Assembly: GCA_963823665.1 (NCBI GenBank)
Contig: CAWGMQ010000005.1
Location: forward strand, 672,001-736,000
DNA from: an uncultured Planctomycetota bacterium
GTDB taxonomy: Bacteria; Planctomycetota; Planctomycetia; Isosphaerales; Isosphaeraceae
DNA length: 64,000 nucleotides
Direction: 5' to 3'
The position numbers and the translations under genes were made by a program. Shown one piece after another: positions 8,206 through 36,916 of this stretch; the first letter of the stretch is position 1, and every line of letters begins with the position of its first letter. Under the pieces are notes generated by a model. It worked only from the letters and a program-made list of their open reading frames with translations. It did no database searches and was not told where the DNA came from.

Positions 8206-9966
8206 TCACTTCGACTTCAACTCAAGCACCGGATCAAAGCTCGCCGGAGCCGTCTTCAGGCACTCGACCGTCCGCCCCAGCAGAGTCAGCCCCGGCAAGT
8301 CATAGCTCCCGCCGGCACCCGTCAGAATCGGAAAAACAGCCTGGGCGGCCTCGCTCCACTCGCCGGCTTCGTAGAGCGCGAGCGCTCGCTCATATGACTC
8401 GCGCCGATCCTGCCATTCGGGAGTTGCCGTCTCGGCGTGAAGCTCGTGCAGCTCGACGTCGCCGTCAATCCCCACAACTCGGGCGCGGCAGAGCCGGCGG
8501 GTGGCGAAGCTGGTTCCCAGCAGCTTGCGCGTCGAGCCGGTCACGAGCAAGCTCACGCCCAGGTGCTTGGTCGCCCCCTCGACACGGCTCGCCAGGTTGA
8601 CGGTATGCCCGAGCGGGCCGTACTTGAACTTCTGGTGGCTGCCCGTGTTTCCCACCAGTGCCGCCCCCGAGTTGATCCCCACGCCCAGGCCGATTGCTCG
8701 GCCGACCCGCCCTTCCCAGCGGCGATTGAGCTCCGGCAAACCGTCTCGCATCTGAAGCGCCGCCCGGCAGGCTCGCACGGCATGGTCCGGTTGCTCGAGC
8801 GGCGCGTTCCACATCGCCAGCAGCCCGTCGCCGATGTAGTCCACGACGACGCCCGATGTCTCCATGATCCGGGCTGTGAGGTGCTGCATCACGTCCCGGA
8901 TCAGCTCGCACGCCAGCCGCGGTGCGATTTTCTCTGAAATCGCCGAAAAACCGCGGATGTCGGCGAACAGAACGGTCACCTCGCGGTCGCGGCCGTCAAG
9001 AAGCGCCGGGTCGTGGTCAAGCGCGGCGGCCAGGTCGGGCGTGAAGAACTGCTCGAACTGAACGCGCCGGCGTGCCGCCTGCGCTTCGCCCTCCTGGCGG
9101 GCGAGCCCGGCCGCCACGGCCGCGGCCATCACCTGGGTCAACTGGGCCTCGATCGGGCGGATTTCCAGCGACCGCCCGGAGCCCCGGCGTGCCCCGTAAA
9201 CGGCGCCGATCACTTCCTGTGAATCGTCGAGAATCGGCGAGGCGACCACGGCCGTCACGCCTAGCAGGCTCATCGCGCTCGCCTGGAACTGGTCGCCTTG
9301 GTAAAACGTGCGGCGCTGGCTGACGACCGTCTTCAAGATCGACCGGCTGAACTGGCTCTTCGCGTCGTCGTGCGGGGGATAGCAGGCCACCGGGTCCCAG
9401 TCATCGTCACGCCGCAAGAGCACCAACCCGCAGTCGAGTCCGATCAGCTCCACAACGGCGCGTGCCGTCTCGGTGAAGTAGTTCGGTGACGACGCCGCGG
9501 CGCGTTGCACGCCGATCAGCGCCTCGAACCAACGCGCCATCTCGTCCGATTCGGGGGCCGGGCTCAACTGCGGCGCCATCGTCCGTTCGACGAGGCCGGG
9601 CCCAAGCGGTGCGCGGATCGTCTTGAGGGCCGCACCATCGACGGACGATTCAGTGGAGTCTTTCGATTCGATCTCGACAAGCGTGTCGCCCATCTGGAGC
9701 CGGGCGGGCAAAGACGCCAGCAACTCGCGCCCGGGGTCGATCAACGTTCCATCCGCCAGCCGAATGGTGACTTTTCCGCTCAAGTTGCGCAAGAGGACCG
9801 TGTCGTCCGCCTGCGGTTCGAGATAAAGCTGATTGGTGGATACGGTCGGGTCTTGAAGCACTCGCCGCGGAACGTCGCGCGTCGGCCCCCGCCCGAGCTC
9901 GAGCGGCCCCCCGCGATGGACGAACCGATCGCGCTCTGTCCGACTACTGAGCAAGATCCAGAGCAT
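8206..9966 (-). CDS. Class III nucleotidyl cyclase with N-terminal FHA-like and GAF domains and C-terminal TPR-like helices
   Basis: FADIRGFS, DYIGDG, GHTVNLASRVE; N-terminal LELGR...DPTVS; GAF-like FSRSILKTV...VASPI. Confidence 0.9.
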   Translation of the reverse strand: MLWILLSSRTERDRFVHRGGPLELGRGPTRDVPRRVLQDPTVSTNQLYLEPQADDTVLLRNLSGKVTIRLADGTLIDPGRELLASLPARLQMGDTLVEIESKDSTESSVDGAALKTIRAPLGPGLVERTMAPQLSPAPESDEMARWFEALIGVQRAAASSPNYFTETARAVVELIGLDCGLVLLRRDDDWDPVACYPPHDDAKSQFSRSILKTVVSQRRTFYQGDQFQASAMSLLGVTAVVASPILDDSQEVIGAVYGARRGSGRSLEIRPIEAQLTQVMAAAVAAGLARQEGEAQAARRRVQFEQFFTPDLAAALDHDPALLDGRDREVTVLFADIRGFSAISEKIAPRLACELIRDVMQHLTARIMETSGVVVDYIGDGLLAMWNAPLEQPDHAVRACRAALQMRDGLPELNRRWEGRVGRAIGLGVGINSGAALVGNTGSHQKFKYGPLGHTVNLASRVEGATKHLGVSLLVTGSTRKLLGTSFATRRLCRARVVGIDGDVELHELHAETATPEWQDRRESYERALALYEAGEWSEAAQAVFPILTGAGGSYDLPGLTLLGRTVECLKTAPASFDPVLELKSK

Positions 9967-10061
9967 CAAAACCCAACCTGCTGGGCCATGCCGCGCCACT
10001 TTCCATTTGCACAATCGTCACCCGGCCCGAATTCCCTTTCACCGCGCCGGACCGTCTACAA

Positions 10062-10080: not shown

Positions 10081-12771
10081 TTATCCATGCTCCCGCCACT
10101 CATCGATCAGTGAGGCAACGAGCGCCGTCCAGCCGGTCTGGTGCGAGGCGCCTAACCCGGCCCCCGAGTCACCGTGGAAGTACTCGTAGAACAGAATCAG
10201 GTCGCGCCAGTGTGGATCCTCTTGCAGCTTCCGTTGCCGGCCGTAAACGGGGCGCCATCCGCTTGAAGGATCGCGCGCGAAAATGCTAATCAACTTTTCA
10301 GCGATCGATCGGGCCATCTCGCCGTAGGTGACAGGCTGCCCGAGAGAGCCCGCGGCGCTCACAGCACGCTCCGGCCCGTACGCCTTGGCCAGCTTGCGCA
10401 GCGACTCGATCAGCAGGAAGCAGGTTGGAAACCAGATCGGACCACGCCAGTTCGAGTTGCCTCCCTTGATCTTGCTGATCGCCTCAGCCGGCTCGTAGCC
10501 AACCGATTGCCCTTCGAAGACAAACGGCGACGCCTGGTGCGCTTTGGACAGGCTGCGGATGCCGTGGTCGGATAGGAACTCCGCCCTATCCCACACCCGC
10601 TCGAGCATCTTCCCGAGCTGGGCGTCGTTCACGATCGTCAGCACGTGCGTGACCGCACCCTCTCTTTTCACCGTATGCACCACACCCTCGATCAGGTCGC
10701 CACGGTTCGAAAGGAACCAATCAAGGTTGCGCCGGAAGCTTGCGAACGGCTCGATCCAAGCCTGCTCGAGCCGCTCGACGGCAAAGAGTGGAATCAGGCC
10801 GACCAGCGACCTCACCCGCAGCTCCCCGAACGATTGGTCGGGCCGCCGCAACACGTCGTAGAAGAATCCGTCGCGGTCGTCCCAGAGCGCATACGGGCGA
10901 TTCCCCATATGCTTCATCGCGGCCGCGACGTAAACGTAGTGCTGGAAGAATTTGGTCGCCAGCCCCTCGTACACCGGGTTTTCACGCGCCAGCTCGAGCG
11001 CGATCCGCATCATGTTCAGACAGAACATGCCCATCCAGCCGCTGCCGTCGGACTGCTCGAGCACCGTGCCGTCCTTGAAGTGAGTCGAACGGTCCAGCAC
11101 GGTGATGTTGTCCAGACCGAGAAACCCCCCCTCGAAGATGTTGTTGCCCGACTGGTCGACCTTGTTAACCCACCAGGCGAAATTGATCAGCAGCTTGTGG
11201 AAGCAGCGCTCGAGAAAAAGGCGATCAGCAACTCCGGTGCGCAGCCGCGCCATGTTGTAAACTCGCCACACGGCCCAGGCGTGCACCGGCGGGTTTGTGT
11301 CGGAAAACTCCCACTCGTATGCCGGGATCTGCCCGTTCGGATGCTGGAACTGCTCGAACAGGAGCAGCCAGAGCTGATCCATGGCGTAGCCCGGGTCGAC
11401 GAGCGCATAGCCGACGCAGTGAAACGCCAGGTCCCAGGCTGCAAACCACGGATACTCCCACTTGTCCGGAACCGACATCACCCGCAGCGAATTCAAATGC
11501 CGCCAGTGCTCGTTCCTCACCGACCGGCGCGACTCCGGCGGCGGGAAAGCCGGGTCATCGCCTTCGAGCCATCGGTTCACATCGAAGAGATAACTTTGTT
11601 TGCTCCAGAGCAGGCCGGCCAGCGCCTGCCGCTGGATGCGCCGCTCGTCTTCGCTCGCCGTGCCCGGATGAATCTCTCGGTAGAATTCGTCGGCCTCCGC
11701 CTTTCGCGCGGCAATGATCTCATCGACTTTGCGCAGAGCCGGCCGTTCTCCAGCCGCCTCTCTGAGCCGGAGCCGGATCACCGCCGAGCTCCCCGGCGAT
11801 ACGGCGTCGAATCGGTAGTGGAGCGCGGCCTTGGTCCCGATTTCGAGGGGGTTGATGCACGGCTCGCCCTGAATGATGAAGCGGTGGAATGCATCCTTGA
11901 CGTAGGCGTGTGCATGCAGGCGACCGGCACCCTCGACCCTCGCACCGTTGGTCTCGTTGTCGGTGAAAAGAAGCCGCCCGCCAGGGGGTGCATCCAGGGT
12001 GCGCCGCCCAAGGTGATATTCAACCGGAACGGTCGCCAGCGATTGAACTCCGGTGTCATCGATCGCCAGGCTAAAGCCGTCCGGACCCTCGGAGCCGCGC
12101 CGGATCGTGGGCCGGGTGGCTGAGACGGGGCCAAACGCCCAGGTATTCCGGAACCACAACTGGGGCAGGATAACGAGCGGCGCAGGCTCGGGACCGCGAT
12201 TGAAAGCCTCGATGCGGATCACGATGTCTTCGGGTGTGGCCTTGGCGTATTCGATCACGATATCGAAGTAGCGGTCCTGGTCGAAGATTCCGGTGTCGAT
12301 CAGCTCGAATTCGGGCCCCTGCCCGTTCCTGGCCCTGTTCTCCTCGATGAGACGGCAATAGGGATACTCGTCCTGGGGATACTTGTAGAGGTACTTCATG
12401 TATGCATGTGATGGCAAATTGTCGAGGTAGTAGTAACACTCCTTGACGTCCTCGCCGTGGTTTCCTTCATGCGGAGTCAGCCCGAAAAGGCGCTCCTTGA
12501 GGATCGGGTCGCGGACGTTCCAGAATGCGGGGGCGAAGCAAAAGAGCTGAAAGCGGTCGCAGATGCCGGCAATGCCGTCCTCTCCCCAGCGGTAGGCCTT
12601 GCTCCGCGCCTGGTCGTGAGAGAGAAATCCCCACGCTTTGCCGTCGGCGCTGTAGTCTTCGCGCACGGTTGCCCATGCGCGCTCGGAGACATACGGGCCC
12701 CACCGACGCCACGATCCGATGTCGTCGCGGATCTCGGCCAGTCGTCTGTGCTCGGCCGTATCTGGAAGCAC
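10081..12771 (-). CDS. GH63/MGH1-like glucosidase
   Basis: [62 protein letters not shown]; likely GTG start at 12771. Confidence 0.9.
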
Positions 12772-12775
12772 GCGC

Positions 12776-14270
12776 TCACCGCCCTCGAGACGGGAACCGG
12801 CCCGGTTCAAATCCGCGCGGGCTGTCGAAGCCTTTGGGAAACTCCAGCCGCTCGAGCAGCTCGCAAAGTTGCTTGTGCAGCGCGTCTTGGTCTGGTGTGT
12901 GCACCGGGGCCGAAGCCAGCGACGATTGATACAAAGGCACCAGTGAAAGGTACGCGCTGCGCGGCCTCGTCCCAGCTTGCAACCTGCTCCCACGCCTTCG
13001 GATCGTCGATCCGCTCGATCAAGCCCTCGATCGTCTTGACGTCGAACTTGTGCTTTCCGACATCGTCGAGGCACTTGTCGATCGACTTTGATGCATACTG
13101 CACAGCCGACTTGATCTCCGGAATCGCTGCTTGCTTCTCCATCAGGAGCGCGAGCCGGCCGAGTGCCTCCGCTGTTGCCGCTCGATTCCCTGGGCCAACG
13201 GCAGGCGAGGCGAAGAGCGCCTCCGTGCCGGGCAAGATCCAGGTTCCCCAGCGCAGTGAACCGACGGCCACGCCGTTGGCTCGAAGCGTGCGACGCCAGG
13301 TCTGGTCGCGCAGGTCGTGATGGCACGAGAAGCAGCCAAATTCGGCGAATTCCGGCCAGGGTGCCGTCGGCTTGTTGTTCGCAGGATTGATCCCGGGCAG
13401 GGGCTCGGGAGGAGCCTCGGACGCGGCGGCGCGTTTCTCTGGCTCGGGCAATCGTCGCTCCAGTAGCGCGAGCGCTGCCTTGATGGTGGTCAATCGGCCG
13501 ACGGCCCACGCCCGTGCAGCGAAGTTCTCCGCCGAAGCACCCGATCCGTCTTCACCGGGTTTCTTGTACTTTTCATCCCAGTGCGGCGGCATGTTTTCCA
13601 GATACGCGGAAAACTCGAAGCTCAACCGGGGATGACCGGCGGCGATCAGGTCGTGATTGACGTCGCGCACGGTTAAACCGTCAGAACGCTCGCCCACGTG
13701 GCAGCCTGCACAGATCTCCGCGCGGACTTTCAGGTCCTTGGTGTTCAGCAGGCCCTTGGCAAACTTGGCGGCGGCATCAAGCGTCGTCCACTCCGCGGTG
13801 GTGTGCGGCCCGATGTAGTTCGCCGCGGCCCCGTGGCACGCCTCGCAGCCAACTCCGTCGGAGTTCAGCCAGGTGGTCCGTTCGAGCTCGGCGGCCGGCC
13901 GCGTCGTCGTGTGGCACGCCAGGCACCGCTCGTCTTCGAAAGCCTTCAGGTGCTTGCCCTCTGATCCCGCAAGCTTGCTCTCGATACCCTCGGAGCGCCG
14001 GTCGAACAGGACCGCGTACGCCCGGGAGTGCTTGCCGGACGACATCCACGTCGTGTGCTCGTTCCGCCTCACGCTCGTGAGCGGCGACTTCACTTCCTTG
14101 ATGCTACCGTGACACGCCACCGCCGAGCACGATCCCGCGCCTCGGAATTCGGATGCCGCGACGGGTGTCGTCGCGCGGCCGGTTCCTTGCCGGGTCGGCT
14201 CATTTCCCCGGCAGAGCGCGGCAATCACGCAGCCGGCTAGAAGCAATAGACCATAGCGTGCCCCTCGCAT
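12776..14270 (-). CDS. Secreted multiheme cytochrome c (c554/c552-like, 5 heme motifs); frameshift ~12955
   Basis: Signal peptide; [39 protein letters not shown]-terminus continues in ORF 12776..12982. Confidence 0.85.
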
Positions 14271-14494
14271 GCCGGCTCCCGCAAAATCGGTGCGACACAA
14301 AAGTTCTGCCCGGCCGGACCTGTGCCAGGATACGGCAGGAACGGACGAAAGCCCAGGAATTAGTGGGCTCAAGACTTTTTTTGTAATATAACATGTCAGC
14401 GCGATCGTGGGCGGAGCCTCCTCGGGATCGCGCATGCTCGACTGGCCGAACGAGCCCGGCGCTCGAATCGAATCTCCCGAGGCGGAGTGATTGA

Positions 14495-15487
14495 ATGCTG
14501 GTCTTCGGTCGTGAGAACTGGCGAGCTCACCTTCCCTGGTGTGTGGCAATTCTCGCGGCAACGGCGGCGGCGGCGGTTGGTTACATCGCTTACGGGTTCA
14601 GCGCGGGCTCCTGGAGCCCGCCGGGAGGCGCAAGCCCGCCAGGGTTCGTCTACGGGCTCGCGGGCGGCGCCATCATCTTGTTCGAAATGTTGCTCTGGCC
14701 GCGAAAATCGCTCTGGCGCGGCTGGCGCCTCGGCAGGACCAAGCTCTGGATGACGGCCCACATCTGGCTCGGGCTCTTGACCATTCCCTTGCTGCTTTTG
14801 CACGGCGGCTTTCATTTCAGCCTCGGCAGAGCCACCCTCGCCGCGGTTCTGATGTGGCTCCTGGTCCTCGTGGTCGGCAGCGGCATCTTCGGTCTCGTGC
14901 TTCAGAACATTTTGCCGAAGCTCATCCTCGAACAGGTTCCGGCGGAGACGATCCACGCACAGATCGGGCACATCCTCGAACAGTATCGCGACGAGGCCCA
15001 GCGGCTGGTGGACGTGACCTGCGGCGATACCGAGTCCTCTGAAAGTGGACGCACGATTGCCGCTGTCCCTGATCGGGCTTTCGAGTCGCGTGTCGCTTCG
15101 GGATTGGTTCGTCAGGTCGGCCGCGTTCAGGGCAAGGTGGTGCAGTCGAGCATTGAGGCCAGTTGGGTACCCGGCTCGGAAGACTTGAGAAGCTTCCACC
15201 GCGACCAGGTCGACCCTTACCTTCGCGCCCGTTCCGGAACCCGGATGCGGCTGGGATCGCAGACTCAAGCGAGAGCCATGTTCCAGGCGGTCGAGGCTCG
15301 GCTCCCTCCGGCGGCGCACGACGCGGCGAAGCGCCTGGCGGATTTTTGCGAACAGCGCCGGCAATTCGATCTCCAGACGCGGATCCACTTCTGGCTGCAC
15401 GCGTGGCTGGGCGTTCATGTCGCCCTCTCCGTCGCCTTGACACTGCTGATGATCATTCACGCCGTTCTCGCGCTCGAGTATCTCTAG
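14495..15487 (+). CDS. Integral membrane protein, probable di-heme b (ferric-reductase-like) subunit
   Basis: About 5 TM helices; two His pairs 14 residues apart (HIWLGLLTIPLLLLH, HVALSVALTLLMIIH). Confidence 0.75.
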   Translation: MLVFGRENWRAHLPWCVAILAATAAAAVGYIAYGFSAGSWSPPGGASPPGFVYGLAGGAIILFEMLLWPRKSLWRGWRLGRTKLWMTAHIWLGLLTIPLLLLHGGFHFSLGRATLAAVLMWLLVLVVGSGIFGLVLQNILPKLILEQVPAETIHAQIGHILEQYRDEAQRLVDVTCGDTESSESGRTIAAVPDRAFESRVASGLVRQVGRVQGKVVQSSIEASWVPGSEDLRSFHRDQVDPYLRARSGTRMRLGSQTQARAMFQAVEARLPPAAHDAAKRLADFCEQRRQFDLQTRIHFWLHAWLGVHVALSVALTLLMIIHAVLALEYL

Positions 15488-15500
15488 CCTCAGGTAGGTC

Positions 15501-17117
15501 ATGAACGGAGAAACCGGCAAACGGCGCCAGTCGCGAATCGAGCTCACGTACTACCAGACCGCCGACTGGTATGTGTGGTGGCGGCGCGGTCTCTGTCTAT
15601 TCGCAGTCCTCGCCGTGGCGATCTGGATCGTGAAATCGGCCATCGCCAGCCGCGGCGCCACGTCTCACCCATGGTTGCCCGTCCCCACCACGATTGCCTC
15701 CAAGGGCCCCCTTTCCCAGCCGCACGCGATCTGGGACTCGACATGCGATGCATGCCACGTTTCGTTCGCCCCGATCAACGGTTCGCGCTGGTCGCCCGCA
15801 CTCTGGGCAAGTAAAGACGGGGGAAGCAAGAAGTGCACCGCCTGCCATGCCGGGCCGGCTCATCATCAGAGTCAGCTAAAGGAATCCGTCCCCGATTGTG
15901 CCGAGTGTCATCGCGACCATCGCGGGCACGATTCGTCTCTCCTCTCCATGGACGACTCGGTATGCACAACCTGTCACCAGAAACTCGCCGATCATCGCGA
16001 TGGGCCTGGCGTGGTTGTGAACATCCCCGACAGCGTGACCCGATTTGACGAAAAAAACCACCCTGGCCTTTCCGCATCCTGGACCGCGCGTGCGAAAGAC
16101 ACGAAGCGAATCAAGTTCAACCACGCAAGACATCGGGCCCTTGGGATCGCGCTCGAAAAGGGCGGAAAACCGTGGACTTTCGCCGACCTCGCGGAACCTG
16201 ACCGAGCTCGGTACGGCTGGAAGGCCGGCGTGTCGCCCGATACTCCGATCAAGCTCGAGTGCGCAGCGTGCCATGAAACTGATGCGAGCGCGGTCGCCAC
16301 ATCAGTCAATCGTGGCTCGCTGAATGCCGGCGAGCCGCGCAGCCCGGGCGCCTACATGCGGCCGATTGTCTTCGACTACCACTGCGCAGCCTGCCATCGT
16401 CTCGAGTTTGACGCCAAGCTGCCGAACGCGACGATGCGCCATGGAATCTCTGCGCAAGAAGTCTTCGCCGATCTGAACCAGCGTTACACCGCGGAGGCCG
16501 TGAGAGCCGATCCAGAACTGCTCAGGCAGTTCGTCCCGCCGCGGCCGATGCCAGGGCAACCTGCTGTGCCCGCGAAAGAGCGGATCAAGCAGGCAGCAGT
16601 TGAGAGTTATTTCACTGCGGCGAGGTTTCTCTTCGCTGCCGCGATCGATGAAAACGTCCGCCGGGCAGCAAAGTTACCCGCAAGCCGGCGAGGATGCGTG
16701 GAGTGCCATGTCCTGAAACCCGGTGCGGGGCCGATCGTGAATCTGGATTCACTCGCATCGATCGAGATTGCACCGCCGCTCATGACGCCCGTCTGGCAAG
16801 AGCACGCGTTTTTCAATCACACGACTCATCGTGCGCTCAATTGTGCCGCGTGCCACGCGGACGTCGATCTGTCCAGGGAAAACGGCGACGTGCCTCTCCT
16901 GCCGGACATCACGAAATGCGTCACATGCCACTCTCCGGCCGGCACGCTGCGCGCGGGTCAGCCCGGAGGCGCAAGCACCTCGTGTACCGAGTGCCACCGC
17001 TATCACAACGGCGACAACCCCGACCAAGGGCTGGGCGCCAGGGCGCGGCGAGGTGCACTCGAGCAGACGCTCGAGAGATTCTTGGGGGGGATGCCAGAGG
17101 CCGGTTCCGCGAAATGA
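15501..17117 (+). CDS. Membrane-anchored decaheme cytochrome c (cytochrome c3-like)
   Basis: One N-terminal TM helix; 10 CxxCH motifs counted. Confidence 0.9.
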   Translation: MNGETGKRRQSRIELTYYQTADWYVWWRRGLCLFAVLAVAIWIVKSAIASRGATSHPWLPVPTTIASKGPLSQPHAIWDSTCDACHVSFAPINGSRWSPALWASKDGGSKKCTACHAGPAHHQSQLKESVPDCAECHRDHRGHDSSLLSMDDSVCTTCHQKLADHRDGPGVVVNIPDSVTRFDEKNHPGLSASWTARAKDTKRIKFNHARHRALGIALEKGGKPWTFADLAEPDRARYGWKAGVSPDTPIKLECAACHETDASAVATSVNRGSLNAGEPRSPGAYMRPIVFDYHCAACHRLEFDAKLPNATMRHGISAQEVFADLNQRYTAEAVRADPELLRQFVPPRPMPGQPAVPAKERIKQAAVESYFTAARFLFAAAIDENVRRAAKLPASRRGCVECHVLKPGAGPIVNLDSLASIEIAPPLMTPVWQEHAFFNHTTHRALNCAACHADVDLSRENGDVPLLPDITKCVTCHSPAGTLRAGQPGGASTSCTECHRYHNGDNPDQGLGARARRGALEQTLERFLGGMPEAGSAK

Positions 17118-17230: not shown

Positions 17231-17599
17231 TCACGGGATGAACGTCACCTGGTCTCGCCATTGGTCATCGTCTGCGGCATGTGCGGCTGCCGCGAGGAAT
17301 GCCAGTAAGTCCGCGAGTTTTGAGCGCGCACGAACGATGAACAGGCCCGGCGAGTTGCGGCCGGCTCTTTGGTGGGCCGCGAACTCGGAGATCATCGTCC
17401 GCCTGTCACGGGAGATCAGTACGCGTCCAGCGGCCTCAGCCCACTGCAGAATCTCTGCGTCAGGGGTTGAGAGCGGCAGGTCTGGAGGATCACCGACGCG
17501 GGTCGCATCGATGGGATCCGCGGAGACGGCATTGTGAGAACGAATCGCCCGCCAAAGGTCGCCACGGAAATGCTCGTCGAGAAGATAGCGGAGAGCCAT
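17231..17599 (-). CDS. DUF5615 PIN-like toxin (VapC45-type)
   Basis: RYLLDEH...PDAEILQWAEAAGRVLISRD. Confidence 0.85.
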   Translation of the reverse strand: MALRYLLDEHFRGDLWRAIRSHNAVSADPIDATRVGDPPDLPLSTPDAEILQWAEAAGRVLISRDRRTMISEFAAHQRAGRNSPGLFIVRARSKLADLLAFLAAAAHAADDDQWRDQVTFIP

Positions 17600-17602
17600 A
17601 CG

Positions 17603-17935
17603 TCACGAGTCAGCCGACGACTGGCCGCTGGCGGCCCGCTCGGCGATCAGGCGGCGGATCCGGAGCAGGGCAGGACTGGGATTTGACGCCGACTCCTGGC
17701 GTTCGAGATCGGCGCGGTACTCGGCGACGTAGGTATCCACTTCCGGCCGATGAGCTTCGCGAAAGGCGATAACTCGCCGGATCAATTCGAGGTCAAGCGA
17801 TGGGAGCTCATCGCGAATTTCATCGGGGCTGCGCCCGCTCTCGACCAAATCGATCAGCGAATAGAGACCGATACGGTGGCCTGTAATGACGATTTCGCCG
17901 TTGGGCCATTGGGTCAGAAAGTTCGGAAGATTCAT
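17603..17935 (-). CDS. DUF433 antitoxin
   Basis: ITGHRIGLYSLIDLVESGRSPDEIRDELPSL; AGGGGG RBS; 3 nt from the toxin gene. Confidence 0.85.
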   Translation of the reverse strand: MNLPNFLTQWPNGEIVITGHRIGLYSLIDLVESGRSPDEIRDELPSLDLELIRRVIAFREAHRPEVDTYVAEYRADLERQESASNPSPALLRIRRLIAERAASGQSSADS

Positions 17936-17990
17936 GAGGCCCCCTTTCGCGCTGCCGTTCACCGAACGACATCTATGATACCGCTCGCCT

Positions 17991-18164
17991 TCAGCGACCG
18001 CCAGGAATGGCGGAGCGTACGACGCCGTGTTTCTCGGCGAAGTACTGCCTGCGTCCACCAAAGAGGTCCGGTTGATCTAGGAGCGTGAAAAGGCGCTGTC
18101 GGGAATAATCAGGCAAAAAGCTCACCAATTTGGGGAACGGGTTTTGATCGAACAGCAGCTTCAC
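17991..18164 (-). pseudogene. Degenerate second DUF5615 toxin
   Basis: GTG start overlaps the upstream TGA; (M)KLLFDQNPFPKLV then similarity is lost. Confidence 0.6.
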
Positions 18165-18885: not shown

Positions 18886-19107
18886 GGTAGACTCCAAACG
18901 TGGTGAAGCCTCTTCCAGCACCCGAATGACCGGGAGCGCGATGGACGACCGCAACCGTCTCGCTACCACGCTCAAGCCATCGAGGCGATGCTAGCCTTAT
19001 TCGACTGACGAGCCTACACTCGATGTTGGTTCTCGATTCGTAGTGCGACCGTGGAATTGCCGCAGACTCCGCTTCCGCTTTAGATATTGCCGGGGATTTG
19101 TTTTTTC

Positions 19108-20472
19108 GTGAGCCGACAACTTGCCATCTATGGGGGCAGCTTCAACCCGCCGGGGCTTCATCATCGCGCGACGGTCGAAATGCTGTGCAGGCACTTTGAT
19201 GAAGTCGTGATCGTGCCCTGCGGACCGCGACCGGATAAGCCGGTCACGAACGACGTCGAGCCGATCCACCGGGCGGCCATGGTCGACCTGACCTTTCGTG
19301 CCATTCCCAAGGCCCGCGTCGAGCTCTTCGACCTGGAGTCCAGCACGTTCACCCGGACTTACGACCTCGATCGAAGATTCAGAGCGGAGGGAACGCTCTG
19401 GCATGTCGTCGCCGACGAGTTCGTTCGCCGCGAGCAGAACAACGAATCAAACATTCAACGTGAATGGACGCGAGGACGTGAACTGTGGCAGGAGGCCAAT
19501 TTCGCGATCTTGAACCGTTCTGGAGCTCCACTCGAAGAGGCGGAGCTGCCGCCCCACCGTCGCGTCTTTGAAATTGACCGCGACGGGTCGAGCCTGGTCA
19601 TCCGCAATCGAGTCTTCCATCGCCAGTCGATCGCCGAGCTCGTGGTCAAGGAGGTTGACGCCTACATCCGCCGGCACAGGCTCTACCAGGGCGTCGCCTC
19701 ACCCCGGCAAACGAGACTCCGGCCGGAGAGGCAGAGCTATCTCGTCGTTGCCGATGAGCGCAACGCGGCGTCACGCGCCGTGGCCGATCGACTCGCGGCC
19801 CACAGCGGCAACGATCCCGAGCTGATCGTGGTCGTGGGCGGCGACGGCACCATGCTGCACGCCATTCGTCAACACTGGCGGCTGCGCCTGCCGTTCTTCG
19901 GGATCAACACCGGCCACCTCGGTTTCTTGCTCAACGACTCGCCCGAGGCCGAACCGGACGAGCAAGACCTCGTGCTCTACCATCTGCCCCTGCTGCGGGT
20001 CGAGCTCGAGCCGCTCGAAGGCGGCCAAATCGTCGCGCTGGCGTTCAACGACGCCTGGGTCGAGCGAGCGACCGGCCAGACTGCGTGGCTCAGGCTGCTG
20101 GTCAACGACCAGGAGCGAATCGAGAAACTCGTCGCCGATGGCGTGCTCATCGCCACCGCGGCCGGCTCAACTTCGTATGCCCGCGCGATGGGCGCGACGC
20201 CATTGCCACTCTATACAGCGGCCCTGCTCCTGGTCGGCTCGAATGTGCTGAACCCGCCGCAGTGGCGGCCTGTGATCCTGCCGGCTGATTCCCGGATCGA
20301 GGTCAGGACACACGACCCGGTCAAGCGACCGCTGAACGCGTTCATCGACGGGATTCCCCAGGGCGTCGTGCAAGCGCTTCACGCCCGAGTGAGCAACACG
20401 GCCGCCGTCGAACTGGCGTTTCTGCCCAACAATGACCCGTCGCTCAAATTGGCGAAGCTGCAATTTCCATGA
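19108..20472 (+). CDS. Bifunctional NadD-like adenylyltransferase / NAD kinase fusion
   Basis: N-terminal AIYGGSFNPPGLHH, SSLVIR, VDAYIRRHRLY; C-terminal VVGGDGTML, GINTGHLGFL, FND, ADGVLIATAAGSTSY. Confidence 0.9.
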   Translation: MSRQLAIYGGSFNPPGLHHRATVEMLCRHFDEVVIVPCGPRPDKPVTNDVEPIHRAAMVDLTFRAIPKARVELFDLESSTFTRTYDLDRRFRAEGTLWHVVADEFVRREQNNESNIQREWTRGRELWQEANFAILNRSGAPLEEAELPPHRRVFEIDRDGSSLVIRNRVFHRQSIAELVVKEVDAYIRRHRLYQGVASPRQTRLRPERQSYLVVADERNAASRAVADRLAAHSGNDPELIVVVGGDGTMLHAIRQHWRLRLPFFGINTGHLGFLLNDSPEAEPDEQDLVLYHLPLLRVELEPLEGGQIVALAFNDAWVERATGQTAWLRLLVNDQERIEKLVADGVLIATAAGSTSYARAMGATPLPLYTAALLLVGSNVLNPPQWRPVILPADSRIEVRTHDPVKRPLNAFIDGIPQGVVQALHARVSNTAAVELAFLPNNDPSLKLAKLQFP

Positions 20473-20583: not shown

Positions 20584-20844
20584 ATGTCCACCGATTCTTG
20601 CCGCGAGATCGAGACGTTTTACCATTTCCTGGGCGAGCGGCTTCAAGAAGGCTCGGTCAACCTTTCGCCCGAGGAGAGCGTCGAAGCATTTCGTGCTTAT
20701 CAACGCGACCTCGAGCGCCTCAGGACGGAGCTGGAGCCGGCGCTCGATCGTTTCGACCGAGGCGACTCGGCAAAGCCATTCGATGCCGAGGACGTGAAGC
20801 GCCGAGGTCGGGAGCGGCTCGCCCGCGAAGGAATCACCGACTGA
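20584..20844 (+). CDS. ParD-like antitoxin
   Basis: 86 aa ending FDAEDVKRRGRERL, directly upstream of a ParE-like toxin. Confidence 0.65.
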   Translation: MSTDSCREIETFYHFLGERLQEGSVNLSPEESVEAFRAYQRDLERLRTELEPALDRFDRGDSAKPFDAEDVKRRGRERLAREGITD

Positions 20845-20858
20845 GACTGCGCAGGCCC

Positions 20859-21167
20859 ATGGCAACTGTCGAATTTGACGACGACGCAGTCGCTGACATG
20901 GACGGGATCTACGATCACATCGGTCGATCGCTTAAGAGTCCTCAGGCTGCGGACCGCATGATTGACCGCATTCATGCCGCTTGCGAGTTGCATGCAAGTC
21001 AACCTGGGATGGGGGAGCTCAGGCCCGATCTGGCACCGGGCGTTCGAGTCTTTGCCGTCGGATCGTACGTTGTAGTCTACCGGCCTTGCGATGACGGAAT
21101 TCGTGTGCTTCGAGTGTTCCTTGGACGCCGCAACTTTCCGGCATACTTTCATGACAAGCCGGTTTGA
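20859..21167 (+). CDS. ParE/RelE-family toxin
   Basis: AVADMDGIYDHI...PGMGELRPDLAPGVRVF..SYVVVYR..IRVLRV. Confidence 0.85.
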   Translation: MATVEFDDDAVADMDGIYDHIGRSLKSPQAADRMIDRIHAACELHASQPGMGELRPDLAPGVRVFAVGSYVVVYRPCDDGIRVLRVFLGRRNFPAYFHDKPV

Positions 21168-21191: not shown

Positions 21192-23681
21192 TCAAACGAT
21201 CACGTCTCTAGCGTCGGCCATGCTGCCCCGCACCAAGTCCAGTAACTCGCTCCCCTTCATGCGGTGCGCCGCGTCGTGCGGGCAGGCGTAGACGCAGCTT
21301 GGCTCGTGGCCGGGGCCCAGGCTTGTGCAGACGTCGCAGGTGGTCGCCTTGCGCACTTCGGCCTGGGCTTTCTTGTCGAATTGCTCGACCATGTTGATAT
21401 TGCCATACGGGCAATTCTCAGCGCAGAGGCCGCAGCCGATGCACCAGTTCTCGATGATGATCTCGGCTGACTGGTGGCGGCGGATCGAGCCCACGGGGCA
21501 GCCGACCATGCAGTACGGGTCGAGGCACGATCGGCACGAGCTCGCAACCAGGAACTTGTCGAACCGCAGGCCCTCGCGGATGAGCCGGGTCACTCCTTGA
21601 TGCGTATCGGCGCACGCCTTTGTGCACTCGTCGCAGCGGGTGCATTTCACCAGGTCGAGGACGAGCAGGTTCTGGGCATTCATCAGCCCTTGATCGAGGA
21701 AGGCCTCGAGCGGCTTCGCGTGGGCTTCCCAGACGTGGCGCTGGTTGTCTTCCAGTCGCTTGCGCGCCTCGGCGATCACCGCCGTTCGGAGCGTGGGCGC
21801 TTCGTCCAGGATCGCGCGGAAGTCTTCGGGCGTGATTCGCACGAGGTCGACGTGATCCAGCGCCGCGCAGGTGGCGGTTCGAACGCCGGCCGGGGCCAGG
21901 TCGCGCAGCTCGGGGAGGTCGGAAAGCAGCCCGATCTCACCGATGTACCCGCCGGGGCCAACGTAGTTCAACACCCGGTCTCCTCCGGCGCGAGACTCGG
22001 AGACTTTCACGAAGCCCGTCCTGACCAGATACAGGCCGTCGGTCGCCCGGTCGCCCTGCCGAAAAATCACCTGGCCGGGCTCGAACCGCAAGAGCGAAAC
22101 CCGCGGGCGGAGATTATCCACGACGCGCTGGAATCGCTCCTCGTCGGCCCGCAGGGGCGCGAAAAGGGGAACGCTGCGCAGGTGGCCGTCGATCGTGCGC
22201 GCGCGATACTTCGCCTCGAGCACGCGGCGGAACGACGGACTGCGCTGCATGATGTAAAGGACATTCCGCAGCATCTCCAGGACCGTGCAATCCTCGCCCG
22301 CGGTGACCGTTGCCGAGCGCGGGTAATGGCTCATGCAGGTCATCTCGCCGAAGATGTCGCCGGCCTTCATCGTGGCCTGCGGCCGGCCATAGGGCAAAGC
22401 GACCGGCGCGTCGACGGAGATAAAGTCACGCACGTGGTCGCCTGGGCGCGTCGTCAGCTTGCTGGTGAACCAGCCGATCGCTCCCCAGAACCCCGCGCGC
22501 GGCTGGTTCTCGACATGCTCGACCGGCGTCCGGAGGAAAATGTCGACCGAGCCCTTCTCGATGAAGAAGGCCGTGGCGCCGTTGTCGCCCTCGCGGCAGA
22601 TCACCTCTCCCTTGCGATACACACGGCGTTTGACCGCGTGAATGTTCGATCGCAAGAACGCGTGCGAGATTCCCTGGAACGCCTCGCGAATCTCGGAGAT
22701 CTCGTGCCCGAGCAGATCGCTCACCGAAACATCGGTTCCCTCGGAGAACCTGGTCTCGATCACGCGCTTGTGCGTGAGCGCCCCGGTCGGGCAGTCGTCG
22801 GCGCACTCGCCGCAGGCAACGCAGCTCGATTCGCCCATGGGCGAGTCGAGGTCGAAGGCGATCCGCGCTTTAAAGCCCTTGCCCATCCGGCCGATCACGT
22901 GGTTTTCCTTGATGACGTCGCAACCCCGGACGCAGCGGTCGCAGAGGATGCAGGCGTTGTGATCGACGGCGATGACAAGCGACGAGTTGTCACGCGGAAG
23001 CTCGATCTCGCGGCGCTCGAGCCGCGACTCGGTTGCTCCGAATCGCTTGGCAAGCGCCTCGAGCTCGCACTCGCCGGGAGCCTCCCGTTCCTTGACGCAT
23101 GGTGTGGGATGGTCGGTCATCAACAGCTCGGTCAGCACCTTGACCGCCGCGTGCAGCCGCGCTTTCGCCTTGGCGTCGGGCGATGCGACCGTGTCGACGA
23201 TCATCGTCGGCTCGACGCGATGCTGGCAGGCCGGAATCAGCTTGCGGCCCGGCTCGACGCGATTCGTCCGCTTCGAGTACTTTGAGACCTGCACGACGCA
23301 CACGCGGCAGACCCCCACCGGATCCATGTATTCGCGATGGCAGAGGGTCGGGATTGGATTGGCCGCGTGCAGCAGCTTGTCACGATAAAGTTCGCTGACG
23401 GCGTCATAGATGGTCGTCGACCGCGGGATCACGCGGCCGTGCGCGTCGCGGCGGAAGTTACCCTGCGCGTCGGTCGAGGGCACGGCCTTCTTGACCTCGA
23501 TCTCATGGCCGTCGACGGTGATCTTGATCGTTTCCTCGAGGTCGGCCGCCGTGGCCTTGTCGATGCGGATCAACCGGCCCTCGAAGTCGCGGGCGAAGAG
23601 ATCCTCTTCCTCCCAGACCGGGAAGGTCGCGCGGTCGTCTCGCTCGCGGCCAGGGATGTGGTCTACCGATCCGGCGCTCAT
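21192..23681 (-). CDS. Fe-S protein: NuoG/HydA-like N-terminal Fe-S region, two cNMP-binding domains, DmsB/NrfC-like C-terminal polyferredoxin
   Basis: LCH..VCRVC..AC (2Fe-2S); CILCDRCVRGC, CVACGECADDCP; FGEM..PRSATV, IGEIGLL..RTAT; CTRCDECTKAC, CRSCLDPYCMVGCP, CIGCGLCAENCP, CDVC..CVYACP. Confidence 0.9.
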   Translation of the reverse strand: MSAGSVDHIPGRERDDRATFPVWEEEDLFARDFEGRLIRIDKATAADLEETIKITVDGHEIEVKKAVPSTDAQGNFRRDAHGRVIPRSTTIYDAVSELYRDKLLHAANPIPTLCHREYMDPVGVCRVCVVQVSKYSKRTNRVEPGRKLIPACQHRVEPTMIVDTVASPDAKAKARLHAAVKVLTELLMTDHPTPCVKEREAPGECELEALAKRFGATESRLERREIELPRDNSSLVIAVDHNACILCDRCVRGCDVIKENHVIGRMGKGFKARIAFDLDSPMGESSCVACGECADDCPTGALTHKRVIETRFSEGTDVSVSDLLGHEISEIREAFQGISHAFLRSNIHAVKRRVYRKGEVICREGDNGATAFFIEKGSVDIFLRTPVEHVENQPRAGFWGAIGWFTSKLTTRPGDHVRDFISVDAPVALPYGRPQATMKAGDIFGEMTCMSHYPRSATVTAGEDCTVLEMLRNVLYIMQRSPSFRRVLEAKYRARTIDGHLRSVPLFAPLRADEERFQRVVDNLRPRVSLLRFEPGQVIFRQGDRATDGLYLVRTGFVKVSESRAGGDRVLNYVGPGGYIGEIGLLSDLPELRDLAPAGVRTATCAALDHVDLVRITPEDFRAILDEAPTLRTAVIAEARKRLEDNQRHVWEAHAKPLEAFLDQGLMNAQNLLVLDLVKCTRCDECTKACADTHQGVTRLIREGLRFDKFLVASSCRSCLDPYCMVGCPVGSIRRHQSAEIIIENWCIGCGLCAENCPYGNINMVEQFDKKAQAEVRKATTCDVCTSLGPGHEPSCVYACPHDAAHRMKGSELLDLVRGSMADARDVIV

Positions 23682-25528
23682 GACGATCGCTCCGCAGGGC
23701 CGAGCACCCCGATGTCACTCGAGAACGACTGGAGCACCGTGGAAAGGGGCTTTGCCGCGGACATGCCCAGTCCGCAGATCGAGGTCAGCTCGAGGATCTC
23801 CAGTAGCTCGTTCACCAGCGCTTTGTCACGAGCGAGGTCCTCGGCTGTTGCCTGTCCCCGTGCGATGCGCTCGCCGACGGAGACAAGCTTTTGCGAGCCG
23901 ATCCGGCAAGGCACGCATTTGCCGCATGACTCGTTGCGAAAGAACCGCGAAGCGTTCAGCGCGTGGTCGAACATGTTCACGCCTCGGTCTTCTGCATACA
24001 CGGTGAGTCCGGCGCCGAGCATGAGGTTCAGGGTGCGGAACTCGTCGATGTCGAGCGGCAGCTCGCGGATGTCGAGTGTGTCGCGGCCGGCCGGGAAGTT
24101 CCGCTCGGACCTTGGCCCGACGTCGGCCTTCGAGAGAACGGCGGGGATGAAACCGCCGGAAGGCCCTGACGGCGCAACGGCCTTGAGAGGCAGGCCGTCG
24201 CGCACGCCTCCTGCCAGATCGATCAGCTCGCCCAGGGTCGAGCCGATCTCGACTTCAAAGACGCCGGGCTGGCGCACATCGCCGCAGATCGAGAAAAACC
24301 GCAGCCCCGGCGCGCCGGCTTTTCCTTTGGCGGTGTACCACGGACTTCCTTTGCTACCCGAATCGGCATACCACTTGCCGCCGTTGAGCACGATCGCGGG
24401 AACCCAGGCGAACGTTTCGACGTTCGAGAGCAGTGTGGGTTTGTCGAAGAGGCCGTTGGTCTCGAGCTGGGGCGGCCGGTTGCGCGGCTCGGCCCTGTGC
24501 TCCTCGATGGCCTCGATCAAGGCCCCCTGCTCTCCGCAGACGTAACCGCCGGGGCTGATGAATACCTCCATGTCAAACGGCATTCCGGTGCCGAGCATGT
24601 TCGATCCCAGCACACCGTCATGCCGCGCCGCCGCGAGGGCCTGGTTCACAGCGTGGATCTGGTCGTGATATTCGTGGCGAATGTAGATATATCCATATTT
24701 CGCTCGAACGAGGAGGGCCGCCAGCACCATCCCCTCGATGATCAGGTCGGGCGTGCGCAGGAGGAGCTCGCGATCCTTGAATGTCGCCGGCTCGCTTTCG
24801 TCGGCGTTGCAGACGATAAATTTTTCGTCGCCCCGGGCCTCGAGCACGTCTCGCCATTTCTGTGCCGCGGGAGTGCCCGCGCCCCCCATGCCGCGCAGGT
24901 TGGCGGTTTCGAGCTCGGCGATGAAGCTCGTGCGAACGGCCTGGCGATCCTGTTCACCGGCGGCAGCCTTGAGCTTGCCGGCAAAGTCGCGAGCGGCCTG
25001 GTAGAACCGCGAGTTTGCGGTGGGATCCGTGGCTCGCCCGTAGGGGTCGATCCGCCAGGGTCGCGGCGAGCGATCGACGGCATCGGGCGGCACGTCCTGG
25101 CTCTCCAGGTGCGCCGCGACGATCGTGCGTAACCGCGCGGCAAAGTCGGCAACAACCGGGCGCTCCAGGACGCGCGTCTCTTCCGGCTTTCCCGGACGGT
25201 GCAGCTCGATCAAAACGGCCGGTGCGCCGTCGCAGCGGCCCAGGCACGACACACTCTCGACCTTGACGCGGTTCTCGCCGCCGAACTCGGCCGCGACGGC
25301 CTCGAGCGCCGCGAGGCAGCCAGGTGCGCCGCGCAGGTGGCAGGCGATATCGCGGCAGACGTGCACCTCGACCGGCGGTGGTGGATGCAGCCGGAAGTGG
25401 GGAAAGAAGCTGACCACCTCGTGAATCCGGTGCAGCGGGACATCGAGCCGGGCCGAGAGGCTCTCGAGATCCTCCCGTTTCAGATAGCCGTTACGTTCCT
25501 GGATTGCACGAAGCTGGTGGACGAGCAT
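23678..25528 (-). CDS. NuoE-NuoF fusion (FMN/Fe-S NAD(P)H diaphorase module)
   Basis: CRDIAC...CLGRC; LRGMGGAG, CNADESEP, YVCGEQGAL, GPSGG, ESCGKCVPC, SICGLG; 4-nt overlap with the next gene. Confidence 0.92.
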   Translation of the reverse strand: MLVHQLRAIQERNGYLKREDLESLSARLDVPLHRIHEVVSFFPHFRLHPPPPVEVHVCRDIACHLRGAPGCLAALEAVAAEFGGENRVKVESVSCLGRCDGAPAVLIELHRPGKPEETRVLERPVVADFAARLRTIVAAHLESQDVPPDAVDRSPRPWRIDPYGRATDPTANSRFYQAARDFAGKLKAAAGEQDRQAVRTSFIAELETANLRGMGGAGTPAAQKWRDVLEARGDEKFIVCNADESEPATFKDRELLLRTPDLIIEGMVLAALLVRAKYGYIYIRHEYHDQIHAVNQALAAARHDGVLGSNMLGTGMPFDMEVFISPGGYVCGEQGALIEAIEEHRAEPRNRPPQLETNGLFDKPTLLSNVETFAWVPAIVLNGGKWYADSGSKGSPWYTAKGKAGAPGLRFFSICGDVRQPGVFEVEIGSTLGELIDLAGGVRDGLPLKAVAPSGPSGGFIPAVLSKADVGPRSERNFPAGRDTLDIRELPLDIDEFRTLNLMLGAGLTVYAEDRGVNMFDHALNASRFFRNESCGKCVPCRIGSQKLVSVGERIARGQATAEDLARDKALVNELLEILELTSICGLGMSAAKPLSTVLQSFSSDIGVLGPAERSS

Positions 25529-34523: not shown

Positions 34524-34599
34524 TAACATCGGTTAAGCAATCGTCACACCCGCCTTCGGCTTGCCTTCGACGTCCTGGCCTCCACCGGATCGATGGCCC

Positions 34600-36876: not shown

Positions 36877-36916
36877 CAGGCGATCGCCGACCGCTTCGCC
36901 TGAGGGGGATTGACCC

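Follow-up and report, generated by a model that had tools for sequence, protein, structure and literature searches.

A putative cyclic-nucleotide-responsive iron-sulphur connector between an NADH-oxidising module and multihaem cytochromes in soil Planctomycetota and Acidobacteriota

The window analysed here is a 64,000-nucleotide stretch of the genome of an uncultured planctomycete of the family Isosphaeraceae (contig CAWGMQ010000005.1, positions 672,001 to 736,000, assembly GCA_963823665.1), and our subject is one gene in it, at 21192..23681 on the minus strand, which has an ATG start and encodes an iron-sulphur (Fe-S) protein of 829 residues. The protein combines an N-terminal module of HoxU type (the N-module), two cyclic-nucleotide-binding domains (CNB-A and CNB-B) and a C-terminal four-cluster ferredoxin module (FCP). 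We propose that it may well be the cytoplasmic Fe-S connector of an electron-export chain, fed by NADH and leading to periplasmic cytochromes, in which the flow would depend on a second messenger acting through the CNB pair; we regard the case for and against this reading as evenly balanced. Electrons would pass from NADH through the flavin mononucleotide (FMN) and clusters of a NuoE-NuoF fusion protein (NuoEF) to the [2Fe-2S] and two [4Fe-4S] clusters of the N-module, and on to the four [4Fe-4S] clusters of the FCP. From there they would reach the cytoplasmic-side and then the periplasmic-side b haem of a membrane protein, and finally decahaem and pentahaem cytochromes and a periplasmic or external acceptor. 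A cyclic nucleotide from a genetically linked GAF-cyclase would bind at least CNB-A, and movement of the CNB helices would alter either the contact between the two Fe-S chains or the way in which the FCP docks on the membrane protein. An outlet of this kind would use NADH and move negative charge outward, so that tight control of it would be sensible.

Matches to Pfam, NCBIfam and sequences in the PDB agree on the domain order N-module, CNB-A, CNB-B, FCP. Among the Pfam families, Fer2_4 (residues 106-165) and NADH-G_4Fe-4S_3 (183-220) both fall under their cut-offs, Fer4_9 and Fer4_Nqo3 cover 236-303, cNMP_binding matches in three stretches (E 2.6e-33; 114.3 bits against a cut-off of 27.5), and the 4Fe-4S dicluster families Fer4_7 and Fer4_11 lie at 710-804. 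NCBIfam models match at residues 109-306 (HoxU, E 2.8e-35; the N-terminus of group A6 [FeFe] hydrogenases, 2.6e-41; NuoG, 3.2e-23) and at 672-815 (proteins of PadI, HydN, HybA, NrfC and DmsB type). All of these scores are far under the equivalog cut-offs (121.8 against 333 for HoxU, 82.4 against 470 for NuoG), and at such scores we read the N-module as a homologue of the HoxU/NuoG module, not an orthologue. Neither Pfam nor NCBIfam matched an output domain in the protein. The architecture is not a product of chance, because the homologue list holds more than 100 full-length proteins (54-89% identity) and there are 53 related loci in genome contigs. A full-length AlphaFold2 model built with 57 sequences had a mean predicted local distance difference test (pLDDT) of 70.3 and a predicted template-modelling score of 0.66. 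Its confidence is good over the N-module and the two CNB domains; Foldseek matched it best to the tandem CNB domains of the kinases PKA and PKG and to the N-terminal regions of FdsA, HydA and NuoG.

Ligand residues were counted in an alignment of 26 rows, consisting of the window protein and 25 proteins from the related loci. Four rows broken by frameshifts (L019, L052, L057 and L058) were kept in these counts, mostly as gaps, and excluded from the alignment blocks that were inspected; in these loci, which come from long-read metagenome-assembled genomes (MAGs), assembly errors are likelier than pseudogenes as the cause of the split Fe-S gene. The N-module (residues 106-306; 22764..23366, minus strand), identified by the HoxU match, carries ligands for one [2Fe-2S] cluster (C114, C125, C128 and C152) and two [4Fe-4S] clusters (C244-C254 and C287-C297). 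C125, C128 and C152 were present in 26/26 rows and C114 in 25, with a gap in the last; the eight cysteines from C244 to C297 were present in all 24 ungapped rows, the other two being gapped. Fer2_4 matches the [2Fe-2S] region weakly (19.2 bits; cut-off 22.8), and the double [4Fe-4S] domain is matched by Fer4_Nqo3 with 28 bits and by Fer4_9 with 52.8. Over residues 105-313 the PDB sequence matches were 7t2r_A, 8a6t_A, 6tg9_A and NuoG chains, which are of HydA, FdsA and NuoG types, and the pLDDT of the module is 80-95.

A canonical His-ligated [4Fe-4S] site has the motif HxxxCxxCxxxxxC. The corresponding site here, the equivalent of that for cluster N5 of complex I, occupies residues 191-205 (23067..23111, minus strand) and reads H191-x3-C195-xx-E198-x6-C205, so that the third ligand is missing; PF10588 scored 18.5 bits against a cut-off of 27. 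Because the canonical middle cysteine occurs in none of the relatives in the 26-row alignment, and C195 or C205 has been lost in several of them (6/26 and 7/26 rows, respectively, with L018, L022, L025 and L059 among the losses), a cluster equivalent to N5 is most likely absent from the Fe-S protein.

In CRP and PKA the phosphate-binding cassette has the spacing Gly-Glu-x8-Arg-Ser/Thr-Ala. CNB-A, placed by Pfam and alignments at about residues 335-480 (22242..22679, minus strand), has the canonical form, with G445-E446, eight residues and R455-S456-A457. Conservation of this cassette and of the helix junction described below was taken from a 57-sequence alignment, in which G445, E446, A457 and T458 are invariant and R455 and S456 are conserved in at least 90%; judged from these alignments, the cassette is as strictly conserved as the cluster ligands. 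CNB-A also contains an insertion of about 50 residues (385-435; pLDDT below 50) and two cysteines, C362 (22596-22598) and C449 (22335-22337), which are invariant in the 57 sequences. C449 lies inside the phosphate-binding cassette, and it is conceivable that the two have a redox or metal role within the sensor domain. CNB-B, placed in the same way at about residues 500-628 (21798..22184, minus strand), has a cassette G581-E582...R601-T602-A603 that contains an insertion of 9-10 residues. To speak of two intact sensors would be too strong, because the CNB-B cassette is interrupted here and its Arg is replaced by Tyr in acidobacteria. As far as sequence can tell, the textbook cyclic-nucleotide site is CNB-A only.

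The likeness of this tandem to the regulatory subunits of PKA and PKG is twofold. Those proteins also have two consecutive CNB domains and supplied the best fold matches (4z07, 6no7, 3shr and 3of1), with PDB sequence matches to PKA regulatory subunits over residues 440-606, and they share the canonical Gly-Glu...Arg-Ser-Ala cassette of CNB-A. They differ in that the CNB pair here is embedded between redox modules, with no kinase under its control, and carries the 50-residue insertion in CNB-A and the insertion in the CNB-B cassette. Helices predicted at residues 629-665 (21687..21797, minus strand) lead from CNB-B into the C-terminal module, and the conserved stretch extends to L677: L658, Q664, G665, L666, A669, L672-V674, D676 and L677 are all invariant at this junction.

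The FCP (residues 672-815; 21237..21668, minus strand) was recognised by Pfam, NCBIfam and PDB sequence matches and contains 16 cysteines in four motifs, at 680-690, 716-728, 747-757 and 782-800. Any one of these cysteines is found in 20-22 rows out of 26; the remaining rows mostly have gaps caused by frameshifts. Fer4_11, with 25.2 bits against 26.2, is just under its cut-off, and the PDB sequence matches were 8c0z_C, HycB3 (7qv7_A), HycB (7z0s_B) and FdnH (1kqf_B). A preliminary description of this gene had already proposed a [2Fe-2S] cluster, a degenerate His site and two [4Fe-4S] clusters at the N-terminus, with which the domain matches and ligand alignment agree, and four further cysteine clusters at the C-terminus, which the 16 cysteines bear out. 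It had also placed a CNB pair between two Fe-S chains, and the tandem found there is of the PKA/PKG regulatory-subunit type. Its statement that there are two cNMP-binding domains holds in so far as both are present, with the qualification that the cassette is canonical in CNB-A only and interrupted in CNB-B.

The likely electron acceptor of the FCP is a five-helix membrane protein of 330 residues with two predicted b-type haems, encoded at 14495..15487 on the plus strand and recognised by its transmembrane windows and conserved histidines. Five of its segments are hydrophobic, and the positive-inside rule predicts a cytoplasmic position for a large loop at about 150-290. Its motifs are W85x3H89x13H103 in helix 3, S129-G130-x-x-G133 in helix 4 and W304x3H308x13H322 in helix 5. 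H103, H308 and H322 are invariant and H89 is conserved in at least 90%, and the two pairs H89/H103 and H308/H322 are each 14 apart. No Pfam family matched it significantly (best, DUF4405, E 0.47). In a protein atlas it falls among unnamed clusters and one cluster named automatically 'putative Ferric reductase like transmembrane component' (0.94), which we treat as a lead and not as evidence. He et al. 2017 (PMC5566968) give as the signature of PCC3 and PCC4 clusters an inner-membrane protein of five helices, the third and fifth with Wx3Hx13H and the fourth with SGxxG, and read these motifs as two b-haem sites of ferric-reductase/cytochrome b type; the window protein has this signature.

We co-folded the membrane protein (with a 27-row alignment) and residues 650-829 of the Fe-S protein, together with three controls. 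The pair scored 0.67 against 0.00 for the best control, at least 60% of contacts agreed across three runs, and the partner pLDDT was at least 73. The mark that this score passed is reached by 116/157 solved complexes and 2/215 mismatched pairs, a calibration that is only rough here, where custom alignments were used. On the membrane side the contacts involve residues 2-11, 71-86, 137-156 and 298-302, in predicted cytoplasmic loops next to H89 and H308; the FCP contributes the first cysteine motif (677-693) and C796-C800 (interface 792-803). These models support, and do not prove, docking of an FCP end cluster on the cytoplasmic face of the membrane protein, with the geometry that electron transfer within such a complex would call for. 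NarH-NarI and FdnH-FdnI are solved complexes in which a four-cluster protein sits on a dihaem b subunit. The FCP resembles these subunits, and also HybA, NrfC, DmsB and HycB, in having 16 cysteines in four motifs, and resembles NarH-NarI and FdnH-FdnI in the predicted docking, which brings one of the end clusters up to a membrane protein that has two bis-His haem sites. The FCP differs from them in being the C-terminal domain of a larger cytoplasmic protein; there is no catalytic subunit, and the membrane partner lacks a significant Pfam match.

At the other end of the proposed chain, the NADH/FMN input module is predicted to be a NuoE-NuoF fusion flavoprotein of 616 residues, encoded at 23678..25528 on the minus strand (NuoF family, E 2.9e-100). 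Four nucleotides are shared between the end of this gene, at its stop codon, and the start of the Fe-S gene, and from this arrangement we take the two genes to be translationally coupled. Pfam places 2Fe-2S_thioredx at 2-109, Complex1_51K at 208-377, then SLBB, and NADH_4Fe-4S at 522-606, and the motifs CRDIAC, CLGRC, GMGGAG, NADESEP and CGKCVPC are present. A bifurcating enzyme of HydABC type was considered and rejected: flavoprotein subunits of bifurcating HydB type carry additional ferredoxin-type cluster domains, and this flavoprotein has none beyond its four Pfam domains, with 12 cysteines in all. Like the HoxEFU diaphorase, NuoEFG, FdsGBA and HydABC, the pair combines a NuoE-like [2Fe-2S] domain and a NuoF-like FMN/NADH site with an N3 cluster, and a partner subunit with an N-terminal [2Fe-2S] and double [4Fe-4S] ferredoxin domain. 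Unlike them, it has no hydrogenase, molybdopterin or H-cluster domain after the N-module, its His site lacks one ligand, and NuoE and NuoF are fused. Immediately next to the Fe-S gene, at 19087-20472 on the plus strand, is a 461-residue fusion of a cytidylyltransferase-like (NMNAT-type) domain and NAD kinase, which is also beside the Fe-S gene in the two closest relatives, L007 and L049; it is possible that this protein links NAD(P) supply to the NADH module.

Partner genes were detected by tblastn of the window proteins against the 53 loci and by clustering of all open reading frames (ORFs) therein. NuoEF is directly upstream of the Fe-S gene in 48/53 loci, and in each of the remaining five the contig ends where the match starts. 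The five-helix membrane protein gene is present in 30 of the loci, a membrane-anchored decahaem cytochrome c (538 residues, 10 CxxCH; 15501..17117, plus strand) in 31, and a c554-like pentahaem cytochrome (four CxxCH and one CxxxxCH; 12807..14270, minus strand) in 20. The pentahaem protein has a lipoprotein-like signal after an internal Met, and its true start is likely at 14270 (the listed ORF spans 12807-14561). A GH63/MGH1-like ORF at 10081-13509 on the same strand shares about 700 nt with the listed pentahaem ORF; translation of the GH63/MGH1-like gene probably begins far downstream of the GTG given for it, and a GH63-like gene follows the pentahaem gene in five loci including the window, for example L008.

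The partners recur across Planctomycetota, Acidobacteriota and one Rokubacteria MAG, in three gene orders: pentahaem, membrane, decahaem, NuoEF and Fe-S in Gemmataceae and Pirellulales; NuoEF, Fe-S, membrane and decahaem in Acidobacteria; and the convergent order of the window in its closer Isosphaera-like relatives. The toxin-antitoxin-like insertions that separate the cytochrome genes from the Fe-S operon in the window, at 17231-18061 (minus strand) and 20598-21167 (plus strand; DUF433/DUF5615 and a ParE-domain ORF for the two pairs), are absent from relatives at about 70% identity. One locus, L049, lies on a contig labelled Solirubrobacterales (Actinomycetota); its Fe-S, NuoEF and NadK-like genes are 80-87% identical to those of the window, and the contig looks mis-binned. 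The window itself carries PSCyt2/PSD1 (DUF1549/DUF1553) and DUF1501 genes at 34561-38321 (plus strand), typical planctomycete pairs that confirm the phylum context.

The association with the membrane protein was also seen at the scale of the phylum. In an even sample of 200 genomes of Planctomycetota, a strong CNB-FCP match was found in 11, and 11/11 had the membrane protein; these genomes are not independent, owing to kinship, but are spread over seven families. Only two of the other 189 had it, both as weak matches, and one of these adjoins a distant CNB-FCP gene. In five genomes whose locus lacked the membrane gene, it was found elsewhere in the genome (5/5). It is very improbable, against this co-occurrence (11/11 v 2/189), that the Fe-S protein is a redox-and-nucleotide sensor signalling to other partners, with cytochrome genes nearby by coincidence, even though the cytochrome genes of the window stand outside the Fe-S operon: the protein has no output domain, and its seven predicted clusters and full NuoEF partner go far beyond the needs of a sensor.

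A candidate source of the ligand lies close by. The gene at 8206..10014 (minus strand) encodes a class III nucleotidyl cyclase of 602 residues (Guanylate_cyc, E 5.7e-20) with a weak GAF match, 11 kb from the Fe-S gene and 2.8 kb from the pentahaem gene. The 16.46-Mb genome contains only three PF00211 matches, of which this is the best, and the chance that one would fall within about 13 kb of the operon is, as a rough estimate, about 3 x 26 kb / 16.46 Mb, or less than 1%. An orthologue adjoins the cluster in 6/53 loci (L008, L009, L011, L015, L017 and L059), from at least three lineages, with 39-47% identity over nearly the full length; for that of L059, the window cyclase is the only match in the window's genome, and the relation is reciprocal. 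In the 200-genome sample, full-length orthologues occurred in two genomes, G007 and G099, both of which carry the long form of the Fe-S protein, and in G007 a distance of 1.3 kb separates the cyclase from the membrane gene.

In adenylate cyclases the first base-specifying position is occupied by Lys. At the two base-specifying positions the window cyclase has Asp392 and Gly466, and the same Asp/Gly pair is found in 6/7 cluster-linked cyclases (the window's included), with Asn/Gly in the seventh, from L008. Asp392 aligns with Glu488 of Cya2, which also has Gly at the second position; PMC5995499 reports that Glu488 sets base specificity and that the E488K change makes Cya2 an adenylate cyclase. 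With Asp/Gly at these positions the messenger is not obviously cyclic AMP (cAMP), and the product may be another nucleotide.

Proteins of about 500-615 residues with the CNB pair and the FCP and without the N-module are present in the phylum sample, in the same cytochrome clusters. Four short-form loci contain, in this order, a large multihaem protein, a c554-like cytochrome, the CNB2-ferredoxin, the membrane protein and the decahaem cytochrome, and no NuoEF. Genome G071 (L064 and L065) carries two versions, a long form accompanied by NuoEF and, apart from it, a short CNB2-ferredoxin gene, but only a single copy of the membrane protein was found there. A match pattern covering residues 224-814 in G071 and G159 might have indicated a form without the [2Fe-2S] domain; we rejected this for G071, which has Fer2_4 and a NuoEF neighbour. 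Stand-alone modules of HoxU size exist as well (the HoxU model has 238 positions, and the chains 5xf9_B and 9mqx_A have 242-247 residues). Because both building blocks occur separately, the best reading of the long form is that a HoxU-type module was joined to a CNB-FCP protein that already existed, and not that a NuoG or HydA was stripped of its catalytic domain. The preliminary description had seen the CNB domains as replacing that domain, a claim to which the separate building blocks run counter; topologically, it is the C-terminal module that would occupy the catalytic-domain position of NuoG and HydA.

A protein similar to the short form has been reported from the ptdABCDEFG cluster. The preprint (bioRxiv 10.1101/2023.11.21.568154) describes PtdE as a cyclic-nucleotide-binding protein with 4Fe-4S motifs and of unknown function. 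Together, the preprint and PMC5566968 place beside it the five-helix, ferric-reductase-like PtdF, the decahaem PtdG and, nearby, a pentahaem cytochrome; Planctomycetes are named among the carriers of ptd/PCC4, and the function of the Fe-S gene is given as unknown. By these descriptions, PtdE is the counterpart of the Fe-S gene in subgroup II of PCC4 (He et al. 2017, PMC5566968), and the short forms in L060-L063 have its described architecture. The CNB/Fe-S gene, five-helix membrane protein, decahaem and pentahaem of subgroup II are all in the window, where inserted genes set the Fe-S gene 4 kb from the others; in many relatives they are adjacent. The window protein differs from PtdE, to which it is likened by description and not by sequence identity, in its extra HoxU-type N-module, and the cluster differs from ptd, as described there, in having the NuoE-NuoF fusion and fused HoxU module in place of the FAD/NAD(P)-binding PtdC. 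Genes for the porin PtdB or the tetrahaem PtdD were found neither in the scanned ORFs of the window nor in the families shared by the 53 loci, a scan in which a porin without a Pfam family would be missed. Regulation through the CNB domain is discussed in the accessible sections of neither bioRxiv 10.1101/2023.11.21.568154 nor PMC5566968, and a 2026 review of iron oxidation proteins (PMC13741234) contains no mention of PCC3, PCC4 or cyclic nucleotide. We found no description in the literature of a HoxU/NuoG-CNB fusion or of its function or regulation; the family is in print only as PtdE or the PCC4 Fe-S gene, with its function unknown.

Regulation of the Fe-S protein by a cyclic nucleotide is a reasonable inference, because the CNB-A cassette is strictly conserved, the CNB domains form a tandem pair and a class III cyclase is genetically linked. 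A stronger claim is that the nucleotide would directly connect or disconnect the NADH dehydrogenase module and the transmembrane haem conduit, as a ligand-gated wire that opens post-translationally, within milliseconds; we put this forward tentatively, as somewhat doubtful. Where cAMP or cyclic GMP is known to control respiratory and extracellular electron transfer, it acts through CRP-type transcription factors, and we know of no characterised precedent for an electron outlet opened by a second messenger as a means of respiratory control.

The same chain might be switched at another point, the nucleotide gating the docking, and so the recruitment, of the NuoEF/Fe-S module on the membrane cytochrome instead of changing how far apart the two Fe-S chains lie. 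From the end of the final CNB-B helices (629-665) it is about 12 residues to 677-683, which belong to the predicted membrane-protein interface, the junction between CNB-B and FCP is almost invariant, and the short forms keep both CNB domains; in these the pair cannot act on a contact between N-module and FCP, because the N-module is absent. The interface was, on the other side, predicted from the C-terminal fragment only (residues 650-829), and we consider this version of the switch, taken by itself, unlikely, although as a switch point docking is no less plausible than the contact between the chains.

A little less likely again is that the CNB domains bind another small molecule, as some CRP/FNR-type and trypanosome PKA regulatory-subunit domains do, or serve as a structural spacer or oligomerisation unit, in which case the flow would be constitutive or otherwise controlled. 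Several features point that way: the interrupted CNB-B cassette here and the absence of its Arg from the acidobacterial proteins, the 50-residue insertion and invariant C362 and C449 of CNB-A, fold matches that include nucleoside-binding, cAMP-independent PKA regulatory subunits, and a linked cyclase with Asp, not Lys or Glu, at the base-specifying position. The almost invariant Gly-Glu...Arg-Ser-Ala cassette of CNB-A argues for sensing of a cyclic nucleotide nonetheless, as does the linkage of a cyclase orthologue to the cluster in several lineages, in the window's case within a genome that has only three such genes.

Electrons might also run in the reverse direction, from periplasmic multihaem cytochromes inward (for example in oxidation of Fe(II) or minerals), with NAD+ reduced at NuoEF. 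HoxEFU-type modules are reversible in principle, and an inward route through the PCC4 clusters of Fe(II) oxidisers has been proposed, according to PMC5566968. Reduction of NAD+ (about -320 mV) from c-type haems would nevertheless be uphill and the membrane potential would oppose inward electrons; among the genes conserved across the 53 loci we saw no coupling subunit, and the carriers are, from their record titles, soil planctomycetes and acidobacteria. We regard this direction as improbable.

Several observations weigh against the outward, nucleotide-controlled chain that we favour. On the side of the Fe-S protein, the His-ligated cluster site is degenerate. CNB-B is atypical, with 18 residues between Gly-Glu and Arg-Thr-Ala, and its acidobacterial counterpart has the canonical spacing but Tyr in place of Arg. 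The C-terminal module was poorly modelled in the full-length fold (pLDDT 36-64), and the co-fold pass may owe something to likeness with the NarH-NarI and FdnH-FdnI complexes. At the level of the locus, the two halves in the window do not form one operon: they are convergent and are split over about 4 kb by the two toxin-antitoxin pairs and the NadK-like gene. In two Tundrisphaera genomes the membrane gene is megabases from the Fe-S gene. The cyclase link is not universal, being adjacent in the 6/53 loci and having a full-length orthologue in 2/5 long-form genomes of the sample. Scans of the window ORFs and of the gene families common to the 53 loci found no porin or final acceptor, and in PMC5566968 the PCC4 clusters are proposed to carry electrons inward. 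Sequencing runs were also searched for the stretch; none of RNA contained it, and the DNA runs shared at most 0.15 of its words.

If the proposed chain is right, a receptor inside the electron path would provide a direct, fast and post-translational valve on the oxidation of NADH. The system is compact, comprising two soluble proteins, one membrane protein and two cytochromes, and could offer a ligand-switchable wire for bioelectrochemistry. The family is widespread in soil Planctomycetota and Acidobacteriota and has cultured carriers (Tundrisphaera), so that the idea is testable. For part of the PCC4/ptd clusters, called completely uncharacterised in two papers, it would supply both a function and an electron donor.

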